A DNA stretch of 64,000 bases from Alphaproteobacteria bacterium (lineage in GTDB: Bacteria > Pseudomonadota > Alphaproteobacteria > SP197), in NCBI GenBank assembly GCA_965228895.1, contig OZ245842.1:2903964-2967963 (forward strand), given 5' to 3'. The position numbers were made by a program, and so were the translations under genes. Positions within the stretch are counted from its first letter, which is position 1. Every line of letters starts with the position of its first letter. The notes beneath the pieces were generated by a model. That model worked only from the letters and a program-made list of their open reading frames with translations, was not told where the DNA came from and did not search any database. Positions 1,957-56,488 of the stretch are shown piece after piece.

Positions 1957-2874
1957 ATGGCCGAGATGGACTTTGAGATTCTGGATCCTTCTTTCGAACG
2001 CCTTGTGAACACGAGCGCACGGGTCGAACGGTTATGGAGCCGCGGACGGTGGACCGAAGGGCCGGCCTATTTTCCGGCATTAAGGTCACTTGTCTTTAGC
2101 GACATTCCCAACGACCAGCTGCTGCGCTGGGACGAGACGACCGGCAAGACCGGCGCGCTGGTCGCCGGTGCGGGACGTTACACCAATGGCAACACGGTCG
2201 ATCGCGAAGGCCGTCTGATCAGCTGTGAGCACGGGACCCGCCGCGTCACGCGCACCGAGCACGACGGCACCTTGACGGTGCTGGTCGATAACTTTGACGG
2301 GAAGCGCTTCAACAGCCCCAACGATGTCGTCGAGAAGTCGGACGGCTCTATCTGGTTTACCGATCCCGCCTACGGCATCGATTCGAACTACGAAGGATAT
2401 GAGGCCGATCCGGAGCTGGATGGCTGCTACGTGTTTCGTCTGGACCCGCAGTCCGGCGAGTGCCGCATCGTCGCCGACGATTTCTCACGCCCCAACGGCC
2501 TTGCCTTCTCGCCCGACGAGACGAAGCTCTTTATCGTCGACAGTGGGGGCACCACGCACGGCAAGGGCGAACGGCACATGCGCGTGTTCGACGTCGGCGA
2601 TGACGGGAACCTGTCGGGCGGCGCGGTGTTCGCGACATGCACGGCGGGCGGCTTTGACGGGTTTCGCTTCGACAACCGGGGCCGCATCTGGACGAGTGCT
2701 GAGGACGGCGTGCATTGCCTGGACAGCGACGGCAACCTGTTGGGCAAGATCCTGATACCGGAGTGCGTATCCAACGTGTGTTTCGGCGGACCCAAACGCC
2801 ACCGCCTGTTCATCACCGCGACGACATCGCTCTATTCGGTTCTGCTGCCGGCGACCGGGCTTAAGACGTTCTAG
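1957..2874 (+). CDS. SMP-30/gluconolactonase/LRE-like region family hydrolase
   Basis: 305 aa with typical SGL-family residues (NGLAFSPDE, FTDP, six-bladed propeller pattern). The stop TAG lies inside the first bases of the downstream repeat element. Confidence 0.85.
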   Translation: MAEMDFEILDPSFERLVNTSARVERLWSRGRWTEGPAYFPALRSLVFSDIPNDQLLRWDETTGKTGALVAGAGRYTNGNTVDREGRLISCEHGTRRVTRTEHDGTLTVLVDNFDGKRFNSPNDVVEKSDGSIWFTDPAYGIDSNYEGYEADPELDGCYVFRLDPQSGECRIVADDFSRPNGLAFSPDETKLFIVDSGGTTHGKGERHMRVFDVGDDGNLSGGAVFATCTAGGFDGFRFDNRGRIWTSAEDGVHCLDSDGNLLGKILIPECVSNVCFGGPKRHRLFITATTSLYSVLLPATGLKTF

Positions 2875-3007
2875 AGCAGATCCCGGTTAGGTGGAACCGT
2901 TCATCGGTTCCACCTAAACACGACCCGCTCTCTATCGATGAGTAGAGCAGATTCACCCGTCTTGACGGCATCGCGAAGCGATTCCATCAAAACGGGATCT
3001 GCTCTAG
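2871..3007. repeat. MITE-like palindromic intergenic repeat, copy A (137 bp)
   Basis: Perfect 15-bp terminal inverted repeats (ctagagcagatcccg ... cgggatctgctctag) and an internal hairpin (ggtggaaccgttcatcggttccacc). A second copy at 29972-30111 is nearly identical in reverse-complement orientation. It sits between convergent genes. Confidence 0.8.
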
Positions 3008-3013
3008 GCTCGT

Positions 3014-4060
3014 TCAGTACCACTCCACCCGATGCCAACTACCGGGTCCAAGCGTACCGACCATGTTGAATGTGTCCTTGTTGGGCACCTCATAGGAGCC
3101 ACGATCAGTCCAGTCGCTGGTCTCGGACGTCATTTGCCATGTTCCGTCCTTGGCCGCGAAGGTGCCGCTGTGGCCGAACACATCCTCTTGGTAAAAAACG
3201 TAGGTCCCGTCTGCAGCGATATCCAATGTCCAGCGCCGCCAATCATTGCCTTCGAGCACGAAGAGCTCCCATAGGCCGACCACCTGGCCCTCGACCGGCC
3301 CGTCGACCGCGATCAGGGGCTCGCCAAGTTCTTTCAGTCTAACCTGCGCGTCGTAGTGGCCCATATCGGCGGCTATCCGGTACCAACGCACGGCCTCCCC
3401 GTAGTCCGGCTCAATGCCATCGCCATAATAGTAGGTGTCACCGAGGTCGAAGGGTGCGTCGTAGTGTCCCTGGTCGGCGGCAGCCTTGAGCCAGCGGATC
3501 GACTCCGCCAAGTTCACGTCAACCCCCTCGCCCATATAGTAGACCCAGCCCATCTCATATTGAGCGTCCATGTGGCCCTGCTCGGCGGCAAGCAGTGTCC
3601 AGCGCGCAGACTCGACGAGATCCAGCGGCACGCCTTCGCCGGCGTAATACATGCTGCCCAACGCGAACTGTGCCTCTGCGTGACCCTGCTCGGCGGCCTG
3701 ACGCGTCCAGTAAGCGGATTGCTTGAGGTCGACCGGTATGCTGTCGCCCCAATAGAGCATCTCGCTGTACTGAAACTGGGCGTCGGCATGGCCTTGTTCC
3801 GCGGCGGCAAGAAACCACCTCGCGGCTTCCTCAAAGTTCTGCTTGGTGCCGAAACCGTCGAAGTACAGGAAGGCAAGCTCGTACTGGGCATCCGCGTTGC
3901 CGGCTTCCGCTTCGGCCATGTATTCGGCAAAGGCGGTAGCATAATCGCCTTGATTGTAGGCCTGTTCGGCTTCAGCCATGCCAGCTTGGGCCGGCACCGA
4001 CCACGCGGCCAGAACAACGACCAGGACCCCAAAAAATCGAACAACGGGTTGCAGCATCAC
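3014..4060 (-). CDS. Sel1-like repeat (TPR-like) secreted protein with an unassigned C-terminal domain
   Basis: Start assigned to ATG at 4060 with a GGGAGG SD, giving N-terminal MLQPVVRFFGVLVVVLAAWSVPAQA, a signal-peptide-like stretch. There are at least five Sel1 repeats (AEQGHADAQF, AEQGHAEAQF, AEQGHMDAQY, ADQGHYDAPF, ADMGHYDAQ). The ~110 aa W-rich C-terminus is unassigned. Confidence 0.8.
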   Translation of the reverse strand: MMLQPVVRFFGVLVVVLAAWSVPAQAGMAEAEQAYNQGDYATAFAEYMAEAEAGNADAQYELAFLYFDGFGTKQNFEEAARWFLAAAEQGHADAQFQYSEMLYWGDSIPVDLKQSAYWTRQAAEQGHAEAQFALGSMYYAGEGVPLDLVESARWTLLAAEQGHMDAQYEMGWVYYMGEGVDVNLAESIRWLKAAADQGHYDAPFDLGDTYYYGDGIEPDYGEAVRWYRIAADMGHYDAQVRLKELGEPLIAVDGPVEGQVVGLWELFVLEGNDWRRWTLDIAADGTYVFYQEDVFGHSGTFAAKDGTWQMTSETSDWTDRGSYEVPNKDTFNMVGTLGPGSWHRVEWY

Positions 4061-4258
4061 GACCTCCCTCACCGCGTTATCGACACAATAACCGCCAGCG
4101 CGCCTGTACAACACTAGACCATCCGGAAACCTTGCGCACACGTGACATTGCGGCATACGCCCCATAAAACGGTCGCGGTGCCATAGGCAGTGTTACCGAG
4201 AACGGTAACGCGTCATTGTGGCCAGCGGGCGGCATACCGGTGGGTTAGAGGGGGCGGC

Positions 4259-19096: not shown

Positions 19097-19672
19097 ATGG
19101 CCGACACCGGCTTTAACCAAATCGATACCGATCGCCTGGTGATCCGCCGGTTCCGCCCGGACGATGCCTCAGCCTTCAGCGCCTATCGGTCAATCCCCGA
19201 GGTCGCACGTTATCAAAGCTGGGAGGCCCCCTACTCGCTCGCCGAGGCGCAGGTCTTCATGGACGAGATGGCGGCATGCCATCCGGACACGGAAGGCGAA
19301 TGGTTCCAGTTCGCGGTCGCGCTGTGTGATCAACCCGGTTTGATCGGCGACGTCGCCGTACTGGTACCCGATGGCGATCCCGGTTCCGTCGAGATCGGTT
19401 ACTCGCTGGATCCGGCGTTCGGCGGACGCGGTTATGCCGGCGAGGCGGTCGCCGCCATCGTGACCTATTACTTTGACGCGCGCGGCAAGCGCGAGGTGAT
19501 GGCGTGGACCGACACGCGCAACCTGCCCTCGATCGCCCTGGCCGAACGGCTTGGCTTTCGGCGCGACCCCGCCTCGCGCCAACACACCATGTTCAAGGGC
19601 GCGTGGTGCGACGAGGACCGCTACGTCATGACATCAGAGGATTGGGCGGCGCGTTCGAACGACTGCATATAG
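19097..19672 (+). CDS. GNAT-family N-acetyltransferase (RimJ/RimL-like)
   Basis: Start at ATG 19097. Acetyl-CoA-binding region ...GGRGYAGEAVAAIVTYYF... follows the RimL-like pattern. Confidence 0.8.
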   Translation: MADTGFNQIDTDRLVIRRFRPDDASAFSAYRSIPEVARYQSWEAPYSLAEAQVFMDEMAACHPDTEGEWFQFAVALCDQPGLIGDVAVLVPDGDPGSVEIGYSLDPAFGGRGYAGEAVAAIVTYYFDARGKREVMAWTDTRNLPSIALAERLGFRRDPASRQHTMFKGAWCDEDRYVMTSEDWAARSNDCI

Positions 19673-19731
19673 ACAATTGAAGAGGTCGTGCTCACGTGTG
19701 CGACGTATCGAATGCCCGATGGAGAAAGTGG

Positions 19732-20064
19732 ATGCAGCACGGCAAGGCAGACGATGGCCCGATCATGCGGCTGTTCGAGGTGCGGACCAAAGAAGGTTGT
19801 GCCGACAGATTGATTCAAAAATTCGCCACAACATCTGCCGACGTGGTGCGCAACGAACCAGGAAACGAGGGCTATTTCTTCGGGCGAGGCGTTCCTGGTG
19901 ACGGCAATGTCGTCGTGTTTGCCTCCATGTGGAAGGACCTGGACGCGATCAAAGACCGCTTCGGAGAGGATTGGCAGAAGTCATACCTGCCGCCAGGCTA
20001 CGAAGATCTGATCGAGGCGTGTTCCGTTCGCCACTTTGATTTGGCCTCGGGCTGGCACGTGTAG
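19732..20064 (+). CDS. ABM-like (dimeric alpha+beta barrel) protein, hypothetical
   Basis: ~110 aa from ATG 19732. The start is uncertain; ATG 19765 is an alternative. Confidence 0.5.
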   Translation: MQHGKADDGPIMRLFEVRTKEGCADRLIQKFATTSADVVRNEPGNEGYFFGRGVPGDGNVVVFASMWKDLDAIKDRFGEDWQKSYLPPGYEDLIEACSVRHFDLASGWHV

Positions 20065-20069
20065 GTTCT

Positions 20070-20183
20070 CGGTCCAGCTCAGCAGAATGTCCTCATAGGG
20101 ATAGGTCGACAGGCGCTGCTGGGCATTCTCGACCTGATCCGCCAACTGCTCGCCTTTAGTAAGCCCGCCATCGGCGGCGGGGT
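20070..20183 (-). pseudogene. Relic 3-prime fragment of a creatinase/M24-family gene (about 35 codons, stop lost)
   Basis: The minus-strand translation ...DGGLTKGEQLADQVENAQQRLSTYPYEDILLS aligns with the C-terminus of the M24 gene at 22691-23944 (...DGVEGVKLEEQVLMTENGLQRLSTYPYEDILLS). The segment 20077-20117 has 37 of 41 identical nucleotides to 22694-22734. The stop codon is TGG in place of TAG. Confidence 0.5.
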
Positions 20184-25966: not shown

Positions 25967-27879
25967 GGCTCGACCGCCTCCAGCATCAGTTCGGCGATAT
26001 CGACGACCTGGGGCCGTGGCTCGACGACGCCTTCCAGCATCTGCATGCAGTTGGGGCATGCGACCACCACCCTCTCGGCACCGGTCTCGCGTGCCTGATC
26101 CATGCGCAGGTCCGAGATCCGCGCCTTGCCGGGGATGTCGGTGACCGGCGCGCCGCCACCTCCACCGCAGCAGAACGAGCGCAGGCCCGACCGTTCCATT
26201 TCACGTCGCTCCAGACCGAGCGCATCGATCAGATCGCGCGGCGCGTCGATCTCTCCGTTGTAGCGGCCGAGATAGCAGGGATCGTGATAGGTGACCGTGC
26301 CCTCAATCGGGTGCACGACATCAAGTCGCTTGTCGGCGGTCAAGGTCGCCAGGAGCTGCGTGTGGTGCAGCACCTCATAGTGTCCGCCAAAGTCGGGGTA
26401 TTCGTTCTTCAGGCAGTGCAGCACGTGAGGATCGGCGGTCACGATCCGTTTCACGCCCCGACTTTCCAGCGTCGCGATGTTTTCTTTGGCCAGACGCTGG
26501 AACGTCGCCTCGTCGCCCAAACGCCGCGATAGATCACCACAGTCTTTTTCGGCATCGCCGAGCACCGCGACCTCGATGCCCGCGAGGCGCAACAGCTTGA
26601 CGAGCGCGCGTAGAGTCCGCTGATTGCGCCGGTCGTACCCGCCATCGCCCAGCCACAAGAGCCAGTCGTGATCGCTGGCCTCATGCGCGATCTGAAGCGA
26701 AAGGTCGCTCGCCCAATCCAAACGCTCACTGAGCGCCCGGCCACCGGGATTGTCGGCCAAGCGTGTCTCTTCCAGCACGTCCGGTCCGTGGCCCGGCACC
26801 CTGCCCTCTTCGAGTGTGAGGAACCGGCGCAGATCGACCATGGCGTCGACATGCTCGATCATCATGGGGCATTCATAGACGCACGCCCGGCAGGTGGTGC
26901 ACGCCCAGATCGTCTGCTCGGGCACCAGGTTGCCGGCGATCAGGCCGCCGGTACCGTGCCGGCGCGCGCCGAGCGCAATGCCTGGATAAGGCTGGCCCGT
27001 ATAGGTCACGTCGTTGGCGTTGCGGCTGGTGCCGGCAATCAGGTCCTGGACGAACTTCTTGGGCGTCAATGGCTGGCCCGCGGCAAACGCCGGGCACGCC
27101 GCTTCGCACCGGCCGCACGAGACGCAGGCATCGAAGCCGAGCAACTGGTTCCACGCGAACTCACCGATCGTGCCGACACCGAGCGGGCCCTTGTCCAGGT
27201 CGAGCGGCTTGAGCGCCGCATCCGGCGCCTTGCTCCTGAAGCGCGCCTGGCGCGGATGCCATGCCAGATGCAGCGCGCCAGCGATCGCGTGCCGCATGGG
27301 GCCATAGGGCCCGAGGGCAATCAGATCGAGCAGAATCCAGATTGCGACCAGCATGCCGATAAAGATGAGGAGATCGGGCTCCCACGCCTGATAGAGGTTC
27401 GCAACGTTGACCAGACCAAAAAACACGGCAAACGCCATCAACACGAATGGCAAGACACCCCAGCGCCCCCCGGACAATCGTGCCGGACGCTGGGGCCACC
27501 TTCGTGCCAATGCCAGGAGTGCACCAACGATCATCGCGGCAAGCGCCGCCAACAGGAGGTAGCGGGTTACATGCGTCGCCAGACCCAACAAATGAACGAT
27601 GGGAATGAGAATAAGCGCCGCAACAAACCCACCGGCCACCGGCACATGCAGACGGGCGGCCTGCTTGTCGCGCGAGACAACATGGTGAACGTCAATCAGG
27701 TAGCGCGCGGGGATCCTGAGCAGACTGCCGCCGCTCGCTATGTTACGGCCACGATACCACCGTCGCGAACGCGCAAAGATGGCAAGAAGGCAACCTGCAA
27801 TGGCCACCAGGAAGAAAATGCCCGGCCAATAAAGCAAGAAGTAAAAGGCCCACACAGATCCAAACGGTGGTTCAAGCAT
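25963..27879 (-). CDS. dgcB: Membrane-anchored Fe-S oxidoreductase with 4Fe-4S and CCG domains (DgcB-like)
   Basis: N-terminal TM helices. Ferredoxin-type CxxCxxCxxxCP motifs (CVSCGRCEAACP, CTTCRACVYECP). CCG motifs (CCGGGGG..., PCY...). Context with the OYE-type partner and etfAB matches the dimethylglycine demethylase system described in Pseudomonas. Confidence 0.85.
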   Translation of the reverse strand: MLEPPFGSVWAFYFLLYWPGIFFLVAIAGCLLAIFARSRRWYRGRNIASGGSLLRIPARYLIDVHHVVSRDKQAARLHVPVAGGFVAALILIPIVHLLGLATHVTRYLLLAALAAMIVGALLALARRWPQRPARLSGGRWGVLPFVLMAFAVFFGLVNVANLYQAWEPDLLIFIGMLVAIWILLDLIALGPYGPMRHAIAGALHLAWHPRQARFRSKAPDAALKPLDLDKGPLGVGTIGEFAWNQLLGFDACVSCGRCEAACPAFAAGQPLTPKKFVQDLIAGTSRNANDVTYTGQPYPGIALGARRHGTGGLIAGNLVPEQTIWACTTCRACVYECPMMIEHVDAMVDLRRFLTLEEGRVPGHGPDVLEETRLADNPGGRALSERLDWASDLSLQIAHEASDHDWLLWLGDGGYDRRNQRTLRALVKLLRLAGIEVAVLGDAEKDCGDLSRRLGDEATFQRLAKENIATLESRGVKRIVTADPHVLHCLKNEYPDFGGHYEVLHHTQLLATLTADKRLDVVHPIEGTVTYHDPCYLGRYNGEIDAPRDLIDALGLERREMERSGLRSFCCGGGGGAPVTDIPGKARISDLRMDQARETGAERVVVACPNCMQMLEGVVEPRPQVVDIAELMLEAVEP

Positions 27880-29914
27880 CGCGCATCAAGCGTCGGGCAT
27901 CGTAAAGGGCGGCGTGGATGTTGCGCCCGGCGACACAGTCGCCGATGCGGAAGAGCTGGAATCGTCCGGCATCGTTGTTGACGATGGCCTGCGCCCGCCC
28001 CTCGATCAACGCGTCGAGGTCGACCTCGCCCAGGTTCGATGAATGGGGTTTGAGCGCGAAGTAGAGATCGTCGACCGGCAGCGTGCCGTGTTCGCCGACC
28101 ACCTGATCGACCAGGCGTTCTTCTTCCACCAAGGAGAACTCGTTGCGCAGGGTGGCGCGCAGCTTGTTGCCGTCGCGCCTGATCGCGGTAAGCCGCAGGC
28201 TGGGCGTCATGACGATGCCAAGCCGGTACATCTCCGCCAGATGCACCGAGAAGTTCGTCGAGCCCATTTCTTCGGCGACCATGCGGTCGGGCGTCGCGAG
28301 CTCCACTTGCGACCCGCGCGTTGCCATAAACTGGGCAACGCTCGGTCCCTGATGCTGGCCGTTGTCGTCGTGCAGCAGCACGTTTTCACCGGGCTCGACC
28401 GCGCCCGACAGCACATCCCAGGCCGAGACCGCGAGGTCGTTGCCGCCGAACAAGCCCTTGTTCGGACGCCCACCGGTCGCGACGACAACAAGGTCCGGCT
28501 CGTCCGCCTCGACGGCCTCGCGCGTCGCCGCCGCGCTCAGGCGCAGGTCGATCGGTTGCTTCTCAACCTGTTGGGCCAGCCAGCGGGTGATACCGGAGAG
28601 GTTCTCGCGCCACACCGCGCGCGCCGCCAGGTTGACCTGGCCGCCGAGCCGGTCGGCCTTTTCGTAGAGCACGACATCGTGGCCGCGCTCGGCCGCCGCG
28701 CGTGCCGCCTCCATGCCCGCGACCCCGCCGCCGGCGACGACGATGCGACGTTTGCCTTGGGCCCTGGGCAGTACGTGGGGCAGGCTCTGTTCGCGCCCGG
28801 TCGACGGGTTCTGGATGCACAGGGCATCGCCGCCGACGTAGATACGGTCGATGCAGTAGTTGGCGCCGACGCACTGGCGCACATCGTCAACGCGATCCTC
28901 CGACAGTTTCTTCATGAGGTGCGGGTCGGCCATGTGAGCGCGCGTCATGGCGATCATGTCGACATGGCCTTCGGCGACCGCACGATCGGCGGTTGCCAGA
29001 TCGGCGATCCGTCCGGCATGGAACACCGTGACATCGCAAGCCTGCTTGACCGCGCTGGGCAGATAGAGGAACGCCGCCGGCGGGTACGCCATGTTGGGGA
29101 TCATGACGGCCAACGCATGATGGGTTTCGGTGTTGCCGTGCATGACGTTCATAACGTCGACCAGACCGGAATCGGCGTAGCGCTTCAAAACGCCGATCAT
29201 CTCTTCCTGGGTCAACCCGCCATCGAGCAGCGAGTCGCCGGTCACGCGCAGCGAGATGATGAAGTCGTCGCCAACCGAGCGCCGGACTTCCTGCATCACC
29301 AGATGGCCAAAGCGTTCGCGGTTCTCCAAGCTGCCGCCCCATTCGTCGTCGCGCAGGTTGTTGGACGGTGTCAGGAACTGTTCGACCAGGTGGGAGGCAT
29401 CGAACATCATCTCGACGCCGTCCAGGCCGCCTTCCTTGCAGCGCGCCGCGGCCTCGCCGAACGCCTTGATGATGCGTTCGATGTCGAAGTCTTCGATCTC
29501 CTTGGCGAAGGCGCGGTGGGCGGGCTCGCGCATCTGGGTCGGCGCGACGAGCGGCAGCCAGTCGGCGGTGTCCCAGCGGTTGCGTTTTCCCATGTGGGTG
29601 ATCTGGCACATCAGCGCCGCGCCCTCGTCGTGGACCCGCCGCGAGAACTCCTGGAAAAAGGGGATGACCCGGTCCTCGCTGACCGAGATCTGGCCGAACG
29701 CCTCGGCCGAACTGTCAGGTGCGACCGAGGCCGACCCGCCGAACATGGTAAGCCCAATGCCGCCCTTGGCCTTCTCCAAATGATAGAGCTGGTATCGTTC
29801 GCCCGGCATGCCGGCATCCGCATAGGCCGGCGCATGGCTCGTGCTCATGACCCGGTTGCGGATCGTGATGTTCTTGATGGTGAGCGGTTTGAGCAGCGCC
29901 TCGAACTGTGCCAT
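27872..29914 (-). CDS. dgcA: OYE-like FMN oxidoreductase fused to FAD/NAD(P)-binding domain (DgcA-like N-methyl demethylase family)
   Basis: 680 aa. The N-terminal TIM-barrel OYE pattern and C-terminal GGGVAGMEAARAAAERGHDV Rossmann fold match the architecture of the TMADH/DgcA/N-methylproline-demethylase family. It is the first gene of a minus-strand operon. The gene symbol rests on context and is tentative. Confidence 0.85.
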   Translation of the reverse strand: MAQFEALLKPLTIKNITIRNRVMSTSHAPAYADAGMPGERYQLYHLEKAKGGIGLTMFGGSASVAPDSSAEAFGQISVSEDRVIPFFQEFSRRVHDEGAALMCQITHMGKRNRWDTADWLPLVAPTQMREPAHRAFAKEIEDFDIERIIKAFGEAAARCKEGGLDGVEMMFDASHLVEQFLTPSNNLRDDEWGGSLENRERFGHLVMQEVRRSVGDDFIISLRVTGDSLLDGGLTQEEMIGVLKRYADSGLVDVMNVMHGNTETHHALAVMIPNMAYPPAAFLYLPSAVKQACDVTVFHAGRIADLATADRAVAEGHVDMIAMTRAHMADPHLMKKLSEDRVDDVRQCVGANYCIDRIYVGGDALCIQNPSTGREQSLPHVLPRAQGKRRIVVAGGGVAGMEAARAAAERGHDVVLYEKADRLGGQVNLAARAVWRENLSGITRWLAQQVEKQPIDLRLSAAATREAVEADEPDLVVVATGGRPNKGLFGGNDLAVSAWDVLSGAVEPGENVLLHDDNGQHQGPSVAQFMATRGSQVELATPDRMVAEEMGSTNFSVHLAEMYRLGIVMTPSLRLTAIRRDGNKLRATLRNEFSLVEEERLVDQVVGEHGTLPVDDLYFALKPHSSNLGEVDLDALIEGRAQAIVNNDAGRFQLFRIGDCVAGRNIHAALYDARRLMRDA

Positions 29915-29971: not shown

Positions 29972-30111
29972 CTAGAGCAGATCCGGGTTTGATGGGATCG
30001 CTTCGCGATTCCATCAAGGCAGGTGAATCTGCTCTACTCTTAGATAGAGAGCGGATTCACATGGTTAGGTGGAACCGTCTGACGGTTCCACCTAACCATG
30101 ATCCGCTCTAA
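29972..30111. repeat. MITE-like palindromic intergenic repeat, copy B (140 bp), inverted relative to copy A
   Basis: Reverse-complement alignment with 2871-3007 is nearly colinear, with the same TIR and the same ggtggaacc...ggttccacc hairpin. It lies between the divergent starts of the dgcA-like gene (29914) and the GFA gene (30145). Confidence 0.8.
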
Positions 30112-30144: not shown

Positions 30145-30630
30145 ATGGTGAGCGAAGCATTCTCCGCCGAGGGCGGCTGTCTGTGCGGCGAGGTCCGCTA
30201 CCGCATGACGTCGAACCCCCTGTTCGTCCATTGCTGCCACTGCACGCGCTGCCAGCGGGGCACCGGTTCGGCGTTCGTCCTGAACGCGATGATCGAGGCC
30301 GACCGGGTCGCGCTGATGCAGGGCAGCCCCGAGGTCGTGCCCGTGACGGCGCCCAACGGCAACGTCCACAGCATCTCTCGCTGCCCGACCTGCGAGGTGG
30401 CGGTCTGGAGCACCTATTCAGGTGCCGGCGACAAGATCTATTTCGTGCGGGTCGGCACCCTGGACGAGCCCCATCGCGTGCCGCCGGACATCCACATCTT
30501 CACCTCGACCAAGCAGCCGTGGGTGCAGTTGCCCGACGACGTCCCGGTGATGGAGGAATACTACAGTGCCAAGAAGTACTGGCCTCAGGAAAGCCTGGAG
30601 CGGTTCGCGGTGCTCAAAGGAAGGGCGTGA
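30145..30630 (+). CDS. GFA-family zinc protein (second paralog)
   Basis: ATG 30145 is preceded by GGGGGAGG. Motifs CLCGEVRY...CHCTRCQ...CPTCE. Confidence 0.8.
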   Translation: MVSEAFSAEGGCLCGEVRYRMTSNPLFVHCCHCTRCQRGTGSAFVLNAMIEADRVALMQGSPEVVPVTAPNGNVHSISRCPTCEVAVWSTYSGAGDKIYFVRVGTLDEPHRVPPDIHIFTSTKQPWVQLPDDVPVMEEYYSAKKYWPQESLERFAVLKGRA

Positions 30631-50861: not shown

Positions 50862-52901
50862 CTAAAGATCCTTGACCAACCGCAGGGCATCGTAGACCGC
50901 CGCATGAATGTTGCGACTGGCAACGCAATCGCCGATGCGAAAGAGCTGGAAGCGTCCGTCCGGGTTGGTGCGTAGGGCCTGCGGCTCGCCCGCGATCAAC
51001 GCGTCATAGTCGGTCTGGCCACGATTGACCGAAAGCTCCTTGAGTTCGCCATAGAGCCCGTCATTGGCGAGCGTGCCGTAATCGGAGACGACCTGATCGA
51101 CGACACGCTCTTCCTCCTCGTGGCTGTAGTCGTTGTGCAGGAGACAGACCAGATGACCGTTCTCGCGGTAGATCTGTTTGAGATGGTGGTCAGGCGTCAA
51201 CAGGACGTCCGACTTATAGAGGTTCTGCATGTGGGTCGGCAGGTTGGTGGCGCCAACCTCCTCGCCGATCATGCGCCCATTGGTCACGACTTCGACCAGC
51301 GCGCCGCGCTCGGCCAGGAACTCCGCACAGGACGGGCCCTGCTGCATGCCACTCTCGTCGTAGAGCAACACGTTCTTCGCAGGCTCGACCGCGCCGGTCA
51401 GAATGTCCCAGACACTGGCGGCCAGGTCGGCGCCATCGTAATAGCCGGTGTTGGGCCGCCCGCCGGTCGCCAGGATCACCACGTCCGGGTTCTCATTCAC
51501 AATGGCGTCACGGGTCGCTTCGGTGCCGTAGCGTTGGTCAATGCCCAGTTTCGTCACCTGCCCATCGAACCAGCGCACGATGCCCGATAGATTTTCGCGC
51601 CACGGTGCCTTGGCCGCGATGTTGATCTGACCGCCGGGTTGTTCAGCCATCTCGAACAGGATGACATCGTGACCGCGTTCGGCGGCGACGCGGGCCGCCT
51701 CCAGGCCACCTGGGCCTGCCCCGACCACGACCACCTTGCGCGCCGATGACGCCTTGTCGATGACATGGGGCATGGTCTGTTCGCGGCCGGTCGCGGCGTT
51801 GTACGCGCACAATGCCTCGCCGCCCATCGAGACCCGGTCGACACAATAGGTCGCGCCGACACACTGACGGATATCGTCGACGCGCCCTTCCACCAGTTTG
51901 TTGACGATATGCGGATCGGCGATGTGGGCTCGGGTCATGGCAACCATGTCGATATGCCCCTCGGCGATGGCGCGATCGGCCGTCGGCAGATCGCGGATTG
52001 CCGAGGCATGCAGAACAGGGATGTCGACCTGGGCCTTCACCGCGCTTGCCAGATGGAGAAACGGCGCCGGCGGAAAGCTCATGTTCGGCATCAGCATAGC
52101 GAGCCCCGACCAGTCGGTGCCGTGACTTTGATAGACAGACAAGAAGTCGATCAGGCCGGACTGGGCGAAACGTGTCGCGATTGTCATGCAGTCGGACTGA
52201 TCGAGGCCGCCTTCCAGAAGTTCGTCGCCGGACAGGCGCATGCCGACGATAAAGTCGTCGCCGACGGCCTCGCGGATCGCCTCGAACACCTCCAGGCCAA
52301 AGCGCATGCGGTTATCCAGGCTGCCACCGTAGCCGTCGGTCCGTTGGTTGACGCTGGGCGACAGAAAGGCATCGATCAGATGTTGCGCGGCGGCGATCAC
52401 CTCGACGCCATCGAGGCCGCCTTCCCGGCAACGCTGGGCCGCGCGCGCGTAGCACGCGATGATGCGGCGGATGTCCCAATCTTCGGCTTCCTTCGGAAAG
52501 CTGCGGTGCAGCGGCTCACGCACCGGCGACGGCGCCACCAGCGGCATCCAGTTGCCGCCGTCCCAACGCCCCCGCCGGCCTATATGGGTGATCTGGCACA
52601 TGGTCGCCGCACCATGGCTGTGCACCCGCTCGGCGAGCGCCTTCAGGTGCGGGATGACATCGTCGTGGGCCACCGATAGCTGGCGGAACGGCAGCGGCGA
52701 ATCCGGCGCGACCGACGACGAGCCGCCGAACATGGTAAGCGCAATGCCGCCCCTCGCTTTTTCCTCGTGATAGAGCTGGTAGCGCTCGCCCGGCATGCCA
52801 TCCTCGGCATAGGCCGGCGCGTGCGCCGTCGACATGATGCGGTTCCTGAGCGTCAGCCCCTTGATGGTCAGGGGTTTCAAAAGCGCGTCGTACTGGGCCA
52901 T
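50862..52901 (-). CDS. OYE-like FMN oxidoreductase fused to FAD/NAD(P)-binding domain, second DgcA-like paralog
   Basis: 679 aa, colinear with 27872-29914 and identical over long stretches (MAQ.DALLKPLTIK..., RIGDCVA.RNIHAA.YDA.RL). There is no adjacent dgcB/etf, so its electron-transfer partner is unknown. Confidence 0.85.
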   Translation of the reverse strand: MAQYDALLKPLTIKGLTLRNRIMSTAHAPAYAEDGMPGERYQLYHEEKARGGIALTMFGGSSSVAPDSPLPFRQLSVAHDDVIPHLKALAERVHSHGAATMCQITHIGRRGRWDGGNWMPLVAPSPVREPLHRSFPKEAEDWDIRRIIACYARAAQRCREGGLDGVEVIAAAQHLIDAFLSPSVNQRTDGYGGSLDNRMRFGLEVFEAIREAVGDDFIVGMRLSGDELLEGGLDQSDCMTIATRFAQSGLIDFLSVYQSHGTDWSGLAMLMPNMSFPPAPFLHLASAVKAQVDIPVLHASAIRDLPTADRAIAEGHIDMVAMTRAHIADPHIVNKLVEGRVDDIRQCVGATYCVDRVSMGGEALCAYNAATGREQTMPHVIDKASSARKVVVVGAGPGGLEAARVAAERGHDVILFEMAEQPGGQINIAAKAPWRENLSGIVRWFDGQVTKLGIDQRYGTEATRDAIVNENPDVVILATGGRPNTGYYDGADLAASVWDILTGAVEPAKNVLLYDESGMQQGPSCAEFLAERGALVEVVTNGRMIGEEVGATNLPTHMQNLYKSDVLLTPDHHLKQIYRENGHLVCLLHNDYSHEEEERVVDQVVSDYGTLANDGLYGELKELSVNRGQTDYDALIAGEPQALRTNPDGRFQLFRIGDCVASRNIHAAVYDALRLVKDL

Positions 52902-54916: not shown

Positions 54917-56488
54917 ATGAACGAAGAGGCACCGAGCGGACGGCGCGGCAGGCGCCATCGCGGCGAACACGGCGGCAGCGGCGCGCGGCGCGCCCAGCGC
55001 AGCCACAAGTATTCGACCGACGCCCTGCCCTATATCCAGCGCAACATCCCGCTGACGGAGGTGCTGACCGAAGAGGCGCTGGAGATCATCGAAAACAATG
55101 CCGAAACGGTCATGGAAGAGGTCGGCATCGCCATCCACGACGACCAGGAGGTCGTCGACCTGTGGAAGGAGGCCGGCGCCGATGTCGGCAAGGACGGCCA
55201 AACGCTCCACGTGCCCCGCGGCCTGGCGCGCAAGCTGATTTCGACCGCGCCCAACCACTTCATCCAGCATGCCCGCAACCCCGACCGCAAGGTCAAGATC
55301 GGCGACGGCGCGACCGTCTTCGCGCCGGTCTACGGCCCGCCCTTCATCCGCAATCTGGACGATGGCCGGCGCTACGCGACAATCGAGGATTTCCGCAACT
55401 TCGTGAAGCTGGCCTATATGACGCCGGCCATGCACCATTCCGGCGGCACAGTGTGCGAGCCGGTCGATATCCCGGTCAACAAGCGTCACCTGGATATGGT
55501 CTATTCCCATATCCGCTATTCCGACAAACCGTTCATGGGTTCGGTGACGGCGCCGGAGCGCGCCGAAGACACGGTGGCGATGGCGAAGCTGGTGTTCGGC
55601 GATCAGTTCGTCGAAGACAATTGCTGCATCATCAACCTGATCAACGCCAACTCGCCGATGACCTTCGACGGCACCATGCTGGGCGCGTTGAAGGTCTATG
55701 CCCGTCACAACCAGGCCTGCGTCGTCTCGCCGTTCATTCTGGCCGGCGCCATGAGCCCGGTGACCGTCGCCGGCACGCTGGCCCAGTTGCTGGCCGAAGC
55801 CATGGTCGGCATGGCGACGACCCAGTTGGTCCGGCCTGGCGCACCGGTGGTGTTCGGCACCTTCGGCAGCTCGATCTCCATGCAGTCGGGCGCGCCGACC
55901 TTCGGCACGCCGGAACCGACCCAGGTGCTGCTGGGCAGCGCGCAACTGGCGCGCCGTCTGGGCGTGCCGTTCCGTTCCGGCGGATCGTTGTGCGGCTCCA
56001 AGATCGCCGACGCGCAGGCGGCCTATGAAAGCGCCAACACGCTGCTGCCGACGATGCTGGGCGGCGTCAACTTTGTGCTGCACGCGGCCGGCTGGCTCGA
56101 AGGCGGTTTGGCGTCCGGATACGAGAAGTTCGTCATGGACGCCGATCAGCTCGGCATGATGCAGGTGCTGGCCCGTGGCGTCGACATCTCGGAGAACGGC
56201 CAGGCGATGGATGCCATCCGCGAGGTCGGCCCGGGTAGTCACTTCCTGGGCTGCGCCCACACCCAGGCCAACTTCGAGACCGCGTTCTACCGCTCGACCA
56301 TCGCCGACAACAACAGCTTCGAGCAGTGGGAAGCCGAAGGCAGCCAGGATGCCATGCAGCGCGCCAACAAGCTGTGGAAGGAGATGCTGGCATCCTACGA
56401 GGCGCCTGCCATCGACCAGAGCGTCGACGAGGCGCTCAACGCCTTCATCGCCGAAAAAAAGGCTGCGGTGCCCGATTCCTTCACTTGA
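54917..56488 (+). CDS. MttB-superfamily methyltransferase (non-pyrrolysine; glycine betaine/proline betaine/carnitine:corrinoid methyltransferase-like)
   Basis: ATG 54917 preceded by GAGGAGG. 523 aa TIM-barrel MttB-family pattern with no in-frame amber codon. No corrinoid-protein or MtgA-like genes in the window. Confidence 0.85.
   Translation: MNEEAPSGRRGRRHRGEHGGSGARRAQRSHKYSTDALPYIQRNIPLTEVLTEEALEIIENNAETVMEEVGIAIHDDQEVVDLWKEAGADVGKDGQTLHVPRGLARKLISTAPNHFIQHARNPDRKVKIGDGATVFAPVYGPPFIRNLDDGRRYATIEDFRNFVKLAYMTPAMHHSGGTVCEPVDIPVNKRHLDMVYSHIRYSDKPFMGSVTAPERAEDTVAMAKLVFGDQFVEDNCCIINLINANSPMTFDGTMLGALKVYARHNQACVVSPFILAGAMSPVTVAGTLAQLLAEAMVGMATTQLVRPGAPVVFGTFGSSISMQSGAPTFGTPEPTQVLLGSAQLARRLGVPFRSGGSLCGSKIADAQAAYESANTLLPTMLGGVNFVLHAAGWLEGGLASGYEKFVMDADQLGMMQVLARGVDISENGQAMDAIREVGPGSHFLGCAHTQANFETAFYRSTIADNNSFEQWEAEGSQDAMQRANKLWKEMLASYEAPAIDQSVDEALNAFIAEKKAAVPDSFT

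Follow-up and report, generated by a model that had tools for sequence, protein, structure and literature searches.

A two-hairpin, TA-flanked MITE-like element family in marine Rhodospirillales and its association with stop codons

A 64-kb stretch of alphaproteobacterial DNA (contig OZ245842.1 of assembly GCA_965228895.1, forward-strand positions 2,903,964 to 2,967,963; here called the window, with coordinates counted from its first letter) contains two copies, A and B, of a short palindromic sequence. These copies are very probably non-autonomous, non-coding elements resembling MITEs (miniature inverted-repeat transposable elements), and belong to a family of marine Rhodospirillales that inserts at TA within Y-TA-R. 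The family is present in many copies with a common end structure and target consensus, its termini coincide with stop codons, and one and the same site carries a filled, an inverted, a remnant or an empty allele, depending on the relative. An initial annotation of the window had described copy A as MITE-like, and that description is borne out: the element is multi-copy, non-coding, bounded by inverted repeats, flanked by TA and present or absent at its sites among relatives. It is neither a two-copy sequence without empty-site polymorphism nor part of a larger annotated insertion sequence (IS). Absent from that annotation were the dimeric, two-hairpin architecture of the element and its strong association with stop codons.

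Copy number, ends and target site

A degenerate 28-nt end pattern was scanned over a collection of species-representative genomes, a set to which the window does not belong, and matched at least 88 stretches in 12 genomes of marine Rhodospirillales. The hosts are Denitrobaculum tricleocarpae, several Pelagibius, metagenome-assembled genomes (MAGs) assigned to 'Kiloniellaceae', Rhodospirillales BBD 1991-14 and the MAG PL23b_bin.48. At least 28 loci are present in PL23b_bin.48 and at least 24 in D. tricleocarpae, with two in the 64-kb window, which refutes the possibility that the sequence occurs only twice genome-wide. When a profile built from copies A and B was used in an nhmmer search of the window and the matched loci, 98 non-overlapping copies were recovered, 77 of them full length (approximately 140 bp), along with monomers and internally deleted forms. 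The copies fall into three subfamilies, and pairwise identity within a genome averages 0.95 for D. tricleocarpae and 0.85 for PL23b_bin.48; copies A and B are themselves approximately 84% identical. The closest relatives of the window are the ENA contig ERZ26167852 (96.7% nucleotide identity over approximately 22 kb) and PL23b_bin.48.

The family appears to be undescribed: it is matched neither in Rfam (the whole window scanned at gathering thresholds and 2700-3200 scanned permissively, both negative at the element), nor in a 7.3-Gb plasmid collection (searched with copy A, E up to 1e-3, and with copy B, E up to 10), nor in a literature search for its end sequences, which returned unrelated primer matches only. 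A soil-type relative matched the plasmid collection only via an unrelated interior hairpin, and another relative gave no match there.

Copy A (CTAGAGCAGATCCCG...CGGGATCTGCTCTAG at 2871-3007) ends in two arms of 29 nt (2871-2899 and 2979-3007) that were found in a repeat search to be 86% complementary. The first 15 nt are perfectly so, and TA lies just inside both ends, as first reported. Elements are 137-141 bp in size and have no coding capacity, and their terminal TAG and CTA provide stops on both strands. The core GAGCRGATC is common to the whole family. In the window, GAGCRGATYC occurs six times against 1.1 expected, and all six occurrences are inside copies A and B.

End statistics were taken from 76 full copies with intact flanks. 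In these, the left TA is always followed by G and the right TA always preceded by C, and TA itself is present in 71-75 of the 76 (more than 93% on both sides). The outermost base is C in 56 copies, T in 14, G in 5 and A in 1 on the left, and G in 62, A in 10 and T in 4 on the right, with a weaker symmetric C...G bias one to two bases further out. This base varies even among Denitrobaculum copies that are approximately 95% identical to each other, and for that reason it is assigned to the flanking DNA and the target is given as Y-TA-R, of which CTAG is the commonest form. Duplications of 4 bp (YTAR) or 3 bp (TNA) were also considered, and were rejected: in at least 25% of copies the flank on the left is not the same as that on the right, whereas the inner G and C are invariant.

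Two-hairpin architecture

Alignment of the copies with one another and with their own reverse complements reveals not a single palindrome, but a dimer of two hairpin modules of approximately 60 bp, X and Y, joined by a linker (Table 1). Module X is laid out as TAGAGCRGATC..GGTTAGGTGGAACCG-loop-CGGTTCCACCTAACC..GTGAATCCGCTCT and module Y as TAGAGCAGATTCACC..TTGATGGAATCGC-GAA-GCGATTCCATCAA..GGATCTGCTCTA. One motif, TA-GAGCRGAT(T)C, stands at all four module ends, and the inner ends carry three extra bases (GATTCAC versus GATC); the two modules are therefore mirror images of each other. The outer ends can pair with one another, as can the inner ends, and such pairing is the predicted fold of the plus strand of copy A. 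Two details of the initial annotation are altered by this layout. The hairpin GGTGGAACC, which had been regarded as central, exists, but it is the tip of the left module rather than the centre of the element. Similarly, the internal copy of the terminal motif (TAGAGCAGAT at 2943-2952, a perfect complement of 2997-3006) is present, but it repeats the left end in direct orientation, and it is only with respect to the right end that it is inverted.

Either strand of either copy folds strongly, with predicted energies of -69 to -89 kcal/mol and z-scores of -9.8 to -12.5. The hairpin tip covaries strongly, with changes on both sides in 16 of 19 pairs and pairing in 93% of cells; not one of 500 shuffles attained the observed value on any measure, and slid controls were far lower. 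Single modules also occur as monomers, of approximately 68 bp in the retrieved loci L056 and L075 and in a 51-bp form at L095:18440-18491, and internally deleted dimers are found in L020 and L034. The dimer most likely arose when two TA-flanked monomers came to lie approximately 10 bp apart and then moved as one unit via their outer ends. There are also 155-bp variants, in Pelagibius and BBD 1991-14 genomes (L043:5319-5473, L044:7608-7763, L018:5607-5762 and L035:5544-5698), in which approximately 14 extra nt lengthen the module Y hairpin (GGATCGCCCCTGGAAAGACATGGGGCGATCC).

Filled and empty sites, stop codons and gene context

Homologues of the proteins encoded on either side were used to retrieve orthologous loci. 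At the copy A site, the same element is present with two single-nucleotide polymorphisms in the same species (L096), and a full element occupies exactly the same site in the opposite orientation in ERZ25073760 (L089). In GCA_039028155.1, a 36-bp remnant is left (L097:3416-3455; TAGAGCCAATTCAC...CGATCTGTGCC, that is, TAGAGCCAATTCACGCGATTTGTTAGAGCCGATCTGTGCC), which shows decay of the palindrome by internal deletion with the stop codon kept. In L091, L092 and PL23b_bin.48 (L098/L099), the convergent genes are 7-9 bp apart and the site is empty, in the last despite at least 28 copies elsewhere in that genome. The copy B site contains an identical element in L094 and is empty in L095 (88% protein identity), where the intergenic region measures 96 bp, compared with 97 + 138 bp in the window. 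Empty sites in relatives, which the initial annotation had proposed as a check, are thus found for both copies.

The element in L089 is 95.7% identical to a copy at another PL23b_bin.48 locus, but only 85% identical to copy A. These identities favour a second insertion, independent of the first and at the same TA, over an inversion in situ. At the copy A site, filled and remnant alleles all have TAG as the stop and empty alleles all have TGA, which lacks TA; this difference fits a requirement for TA. The joined flanks of each of the at least 88 copies were searched as well, and yielded no empty sites, but one orthologous filled pair (L019/L029) and a shared flank derived from an IS.

Copy A had been placed at the stop codon of a gluconolactonase gene, between convergent genes, and this position is confirmed: the TAG is contained in the terminal CTAG and a Sel1-repeat gene converges on it (Table 1). 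The gluconolactonase homologues listed are mostly 298-311 aa long, 305 being the commonest length, and nearly all cover 100% of the query. The stop position is considered native because homologue lengths and query coverage agree. An exact look-up of the window's own gluconolactonase gave no record.

Across the family, 154 element ends were checked for long open reading frames (ORFs) with a coding-like third-position G+C bias. Such an ORF enters 36 of the 154 ends, and in 32 of the 36 the stop falls exactly on the terminal TAG, against approximately 12 expected with a random frame. The X end provides the stop in 18 cases and the Y end in 14, and placement on a stop codon is seen in approximately 40% of copies. 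When the element was removed in silico together with one TA at the 32 sites, every gene kept a stop (TAG in 27 cases, TAA in five). In L018, L055 and L095, the terminal TAGs are the stops of both convergent neighbours, and a single shared TA must therefore have existed before insertion.

The window has a G+C content of 63% and only 23 CTAG sites. As TA is rare outside stops at this composition, stop codons are a major source of harmless TA targets. The first base of the element is G, and insertion into a TAG or TAA stop would recreate TAG and leave the gene intact; many copies would therefore survive exactly at gene ends. The scarcity of copies between divergent genes (five of the 57 classified from rough gene calls, with 18 convergent and 34 tandem) is what stop-codon targeting and selection against promoter disruption would be expected to produce. 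At L073:2735-2874, the terminal TAG is mutated to TGG, and the upstream ORF runs approximately 75 nt into the element, which thereby encodes a small C-terminal extension.

The many copies located directly after genes (18 convergent and 34 tandem versus five divergent), the very stable fold (z-scores of -10 to -12) and the compensatory stem changes might also be expected of a functional RNA, such as a stabiliser of the 3' untranslated region, a terminator or a small RNA gene, which would persist because its structure is under selection rather than spread by transposition. This explanation is highly improbable. Both strands fold equally well, and the X-to-Y strand shows no surplus of G-T pairs relative to A-C pairs (27/80, 8/8 and 38/35 in the three subfamilies). 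The orientation of the element relative to the gene that it stops is about even (18 versus 14), both orientations occupy the same site in two relatives, copy B lies between divergent gene starts, and Rfam contains no match. Nor is there a terminator-like site, with a hairpin and T-tract, in or next to copy A or copy B. The bidirectional terminator envisaged in the initial annotation is not supported, and the RNA folding that it called for gave strong hairpins, but no terminator-like T-run. Any influence on adjacent genes, for instance stabilisation of mRNA 3' ends by the hairpin or disturbance of a promoter at copy B, is speculative.

Table 1. Coordinates of copies A and B, their parts and the adjacent genes in the window
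Feature	Position	Strand	Remarks
Copy A, full element with outer C and G of the flanking CTAG	2871..3007	+	Full length in nhmmer (156.7 bits); module X precedes module Y
Left flanking TA, putative target dinucleotide	2872..2873	.	With the element's first G, forms the TAG stop of the gluconolactonase gene
Left terminal inverted repeat core, GAGCAGATCCCG	2874..2885	+	Partner is 2993-3004
Right terminal inverted repeat core, reverse complement of GAGCAGATCCCG	2993..3004	-	
Right flanking TA, putative second copy of target dinucleotide	3005..3006	.	
Hairpin module X	2872..2931	+	Arms 2873-2899 and 2905-2931 (27-nt hairpin); without the 3-nt TGA bulge of most family members
Linker between X and Y, CTATCGATGAG	2932..2942	+	11 nt; 11-13 nt across copies
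Hairpin module Y, TAGAGCAGATTCACC...GGGATCTGCTCTA	2943..3006	+	Two GANTC sites
SMP-30/gluconolactonase gene	1957..2874	+	PF08450; TAG stop at 2872-2874, inside the terminal CTAG
Convergent Sel1-repeat gene	3014..4165	-	Ends 6 bp past the element; start codon uncertain; orthologues called at 342-348 aa
Copy B, full element, opposite orientation	29972..30111	-	nhmmer 164.1 bits; between divergently transcribed genes
Old-Yellow-Enzyme-type FMN/FAD oxidoreductase gene	27872..29914	-	Start 57 bp from copy B
GFA-family gene	30145..30630	+	Start approximately 33 bp from copy B

The neighbourhood of copy B includes one half of a 200-nt direct repeat (29715-29914 and 52702-52901, 78% identity), which covers the 5' end of the Old-Yellow-Enzyme-type gene and of its paralogue. 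Several paralogous gene pairs in the window (families D1-D4 and D6-D8) are consistent with duplicated betaine/methylamine catabolic clusters. Comparison of 19654-20170 with L094:19745-19760 identifies approximately 515 bp, including a small ORF, that are absent from the 96.7%-identical ERZ26167852; no copy of the element is inside this segment. Rfam gives a match to PYLIS_3, the pyrrolysine insertion sequence of mttB, at 55988-56087 (+), with 38.1 bits against a gathering score of 38. MttB-family genes are found in this region and in relatives (PF06253 in L089, L092 and L098), and the match probably reflects a coding-sequence resemblance in a non-pyrrolysine MttB homologue.

Mobilization and relation to known repeats

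Movement of the element would depend on a transposase supplied in trans, which would join the element to a staggered cut at TA. Insertion would take place at TA in Y-TA-R, most often CTAG, and would leave TA on both sides of the element. The putative enzyme would be of the DDE type, either IS630/Tc1-mariner or IS5/IS427 (IS711-like). IS630-family elements duplicate TA, and IS630 prefers CTAG, according to PMC2170065 and the Tenzen and Ohtsubo references cited there, while IS711 is an 842-bp two-ORF IS5-family element that duplicates TA within YTAR (PMC2266754). To judge by the target, IS630-type and IS5/IS427-type enzymes would fit equally well, and a TA target is not diagnostic. The initial annotation had favoured IS630/Tc1-like mobilization; TA is indeed found at both ends and Y-TA-R fits IS630, but the attribution is not established, as IS5/IS427 (IS711) fits to the same degree.

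Several points weigh against such mobilization at a duplicated TA. Approximately 960 kb of retrieved loci contain no autonomous element with matching ends, and no transposase between or beside such ends. No base-exact pre-insertion allele is present among the orthologous loci, in which every empty allele differs in its spacer and uses TGA; the duplication of TA is what we infer from the two flanks, and the sequence would be accounted for equally well by an element that ends AG...CT and inserts between T and A. Part of the conservation seen in the right-hand 28 nt is an artefact, since the search pattern fixed 28 nt at one end, although the X end of Pelagibius-type and Denitrobaculum-type copies, which the pattern did not constrain, has the same TA and the same variable outer base. 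Finally, the outer ends in the Denitrobaculum-type subfamily match at approximately 12 of 21 positions only, although pairing is retained within each hairpin, which hints that hairpin structure may matter more than repeat identity. Candidate partners, in which inverted end motifs are 0.4-4 kb apart, were rejected as well, as they enclose ordinary genes only (an ABC permease, a short-chain dehydrogenase, acetyltransferases and an EamA transporter).

Because the hairpin tip covaries and the outer ends of the youngest subfamily are imperfect, a mechanism based on the reading of hairpins remains a minority possibility. An HUH/Y1 transposase (RAYT or IS200/IS605 TnpA) would then move a REP/REPIN-like or PATE-like element by recognising its hairpins on single-stranded DNA, and would insert it without target duplication, with the ends of the element completing the flanking TA. 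The two subterminal hairpins with their linker, the mirror-image modules, which recall a REPIN, the strong covariation of the tip (16 of 19 pairs, 93% of cells) and the imperfect outer repeats of the most recently amplified subfamily are in keeping with this scheme, and TA duplication and T/A insertion are indistinguishable by sequence. However, Y1 elements have an asymmetric target, on one side only, whereas the preference here is symmetric (Y-TA-R) and decays symmetrically on both sides. In addition, the ends are true inverted repeats, the modules measure 60 nt rather than the 20-40 nt typical of REPs, and a crude regular expression found no RAYT-like HUH...Y motif in 962 kb of retrieved sequence. 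An HUH/Y1 enzyme is quite unlikely on this evidence, and a DDE-type transposase acting in trans at TA remains the favoured mobiliser.

Several known repeats share features with the element. REP, BIME and REPIN sequences are also short palindromic units that often form inverted pairs, are abundant in intergenic DNA and preserve the hairpin. However, REPs are 20-40 nt long, have a GTAG head, lack TA flanks and are linked to RAYTs, while the modules described here are approximately 60 nt long, have a YTAG head at the outer ends (C in 74%) and symmetric Y-TA-R flanks, and lack a RAYT signature in the crude motif search. RUP, the repeat unit of pneumococcus, inserts at TA, has many dispersed copies and contains stop codons in its frames (PMC2229807). 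Together with IS630-attributed MITEs, it resembles the element in being non-coding and approximately 100-140 bp long, with terminal inverted repeats, TA insertion and many dispersed copies. The ends of RUP match IS630-Spn1, whereas the element here is without a known partner, is a dimer of two modules, belongs to high-G+C alphaproteobacteria and has approximately 40% of its copies on stop codons. The Correia/NEMIS elements of Neisseria are likewise TA-flanked MITEs of approximately 100-155 bp, mostly intergenic and with long transcript hairpins, and we know of no autonomous partner for them. Their sequence is unrelated, and Correia forms a single long hairpin from its paired ends and carries IHF and promoter motifs, unlike the two independent hairpins found here.

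The element is itself a target of IS insertion. At L072:4550-5399, an 850-bp two-ORF IS5-family IS (DUF4096 and DDE_Tnp_1), flanked by TA, is located exactly in the terminal CTAG of an element. The same IS-end sequence of approximately 120 nt abuts elements at the contig ends L007:1-121, L084:1-120 and L011:1-73, in two other genomes; these contigs stop before the IS itself becomes readable. No tRNA or rRNA was matched by Rfam in this shared flank of approximately 120 nt, which is the end of the IS5-family IS. This IS was rejected as a mobiliser: its ends (GGGTCGAGACTCAATT) bear no relation to the element's own, and the element is instead its target. A comparable case is found in Brucella, where the palindromic repeats Bru-RS1 and Bru-RS2, of approximately 105 bp, are hot spots for IS711 (PMC2266754). 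Likened by description, both are palindromic repeats of an alphaproteobacterium that serve as a target for a two-ORF IS5-family IS of approximately 850 bp, and the IS found here, with its unrelated ends, is a user of the target and not a mobiliser.

A second parallel is provided by CIR1-4, the CcrM-associated intergenic repeats found in Caulobacter and other alphaproteobacteria. A review (PMC2229807) describes CIRs as approximately 110 bp long, with a linker that connects two inverted-repeat arms and with GANTC close to a loop. Compared by that description, the element is similar in being intergenic, in its size range (approximately 110-140 bp), in its two arms and linker and in its conserved GANTC; neither mobility nor a target is known to be described for CIRs, whereas TA flanks and empty sites are documented here. 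Elements contain two to four GANTC sites each, compared with 1.8 per kb in the window, and it could be that they are members of the CIR/Bru-RS class, namely regulatory or chromosome-structuring repeats linked to CcrM methylation, a role that is compatible with mobility. The layout of arms and linker matches the CIR description in the review, and the IS711-like IS5-family element in the terminal CTAG of L072, with IS ends beside L007, L084 and L011, parallels the Brucella hot spot. Nonetheless, the Denitrobaculum-type subfamily has GAACC in place of one GANTC site, the motif at the outer ends is GATC and not GANTC, and the plasmid collection, with its many Rhizobiales replicons, gave no match. 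Membership of the CIR/Bru-RS class is thus very unlikely.

A termini-only pattern (TAGAGCRGATYC-N100-130-GRATCYGCTCTA) was also searched for in metagenomes, and recovered 24 elements (L100-L123) of 124-149 bp with TA-GAGCRGAT(T)C ends and 12 unrelated interiors. The flanking base is Y in 23 of the 24 and R in 23 of the 24, all fold strongly, and the G+C content of the contigs is 0.39-0.69, the low values being 0.39 and 0.47. At the information content of this pattern, a handful of chance matches are possible. Since the matches fall into families with extended end complementarity, their sequences suggest that the ends may define a group wider than the Kiloniellaceae family. It may even be, although this is doubtful, that TA-GAGCRGAT(T)C ends mark an unnamed hairpin-MITE superfamily across many alphaproteobacteria, possibly including CIR and Bru-RS, in which GANTC in the ends would couple movement to the CcrM cycle. 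The mobiliser of such a superfamily would be a host-resident or unrecognised transposase rather than a conventional IS, because no conventional IS partner was found in the approximately 960 kb of retrieved loci. Dam sites gate IS10 and IS50, which offers a parallel for coupling to CcrM.

The known workings of MITEs are unchanged by these findings. The element is real but of a fairly ordinary kind: the family is an apparently undescribed one of a well-known type, whose stop-codon bias and shared ends are modestly interesting. A model of the family would help to annotate Pelagibius, Denitrobaculum and related marine MAGs, in which it breaks assemblies, occupies stop codons and attracts IS insertions. 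The preference for stop codons exemplifies the survival of a TA-specific element at high G+C, through landing at sites where TA is available and does no harm. The common ends over unrelated interiors, together with the CIR and Bru-RS parallels, give a hint of a wider alphaproteobacterial superfamily.

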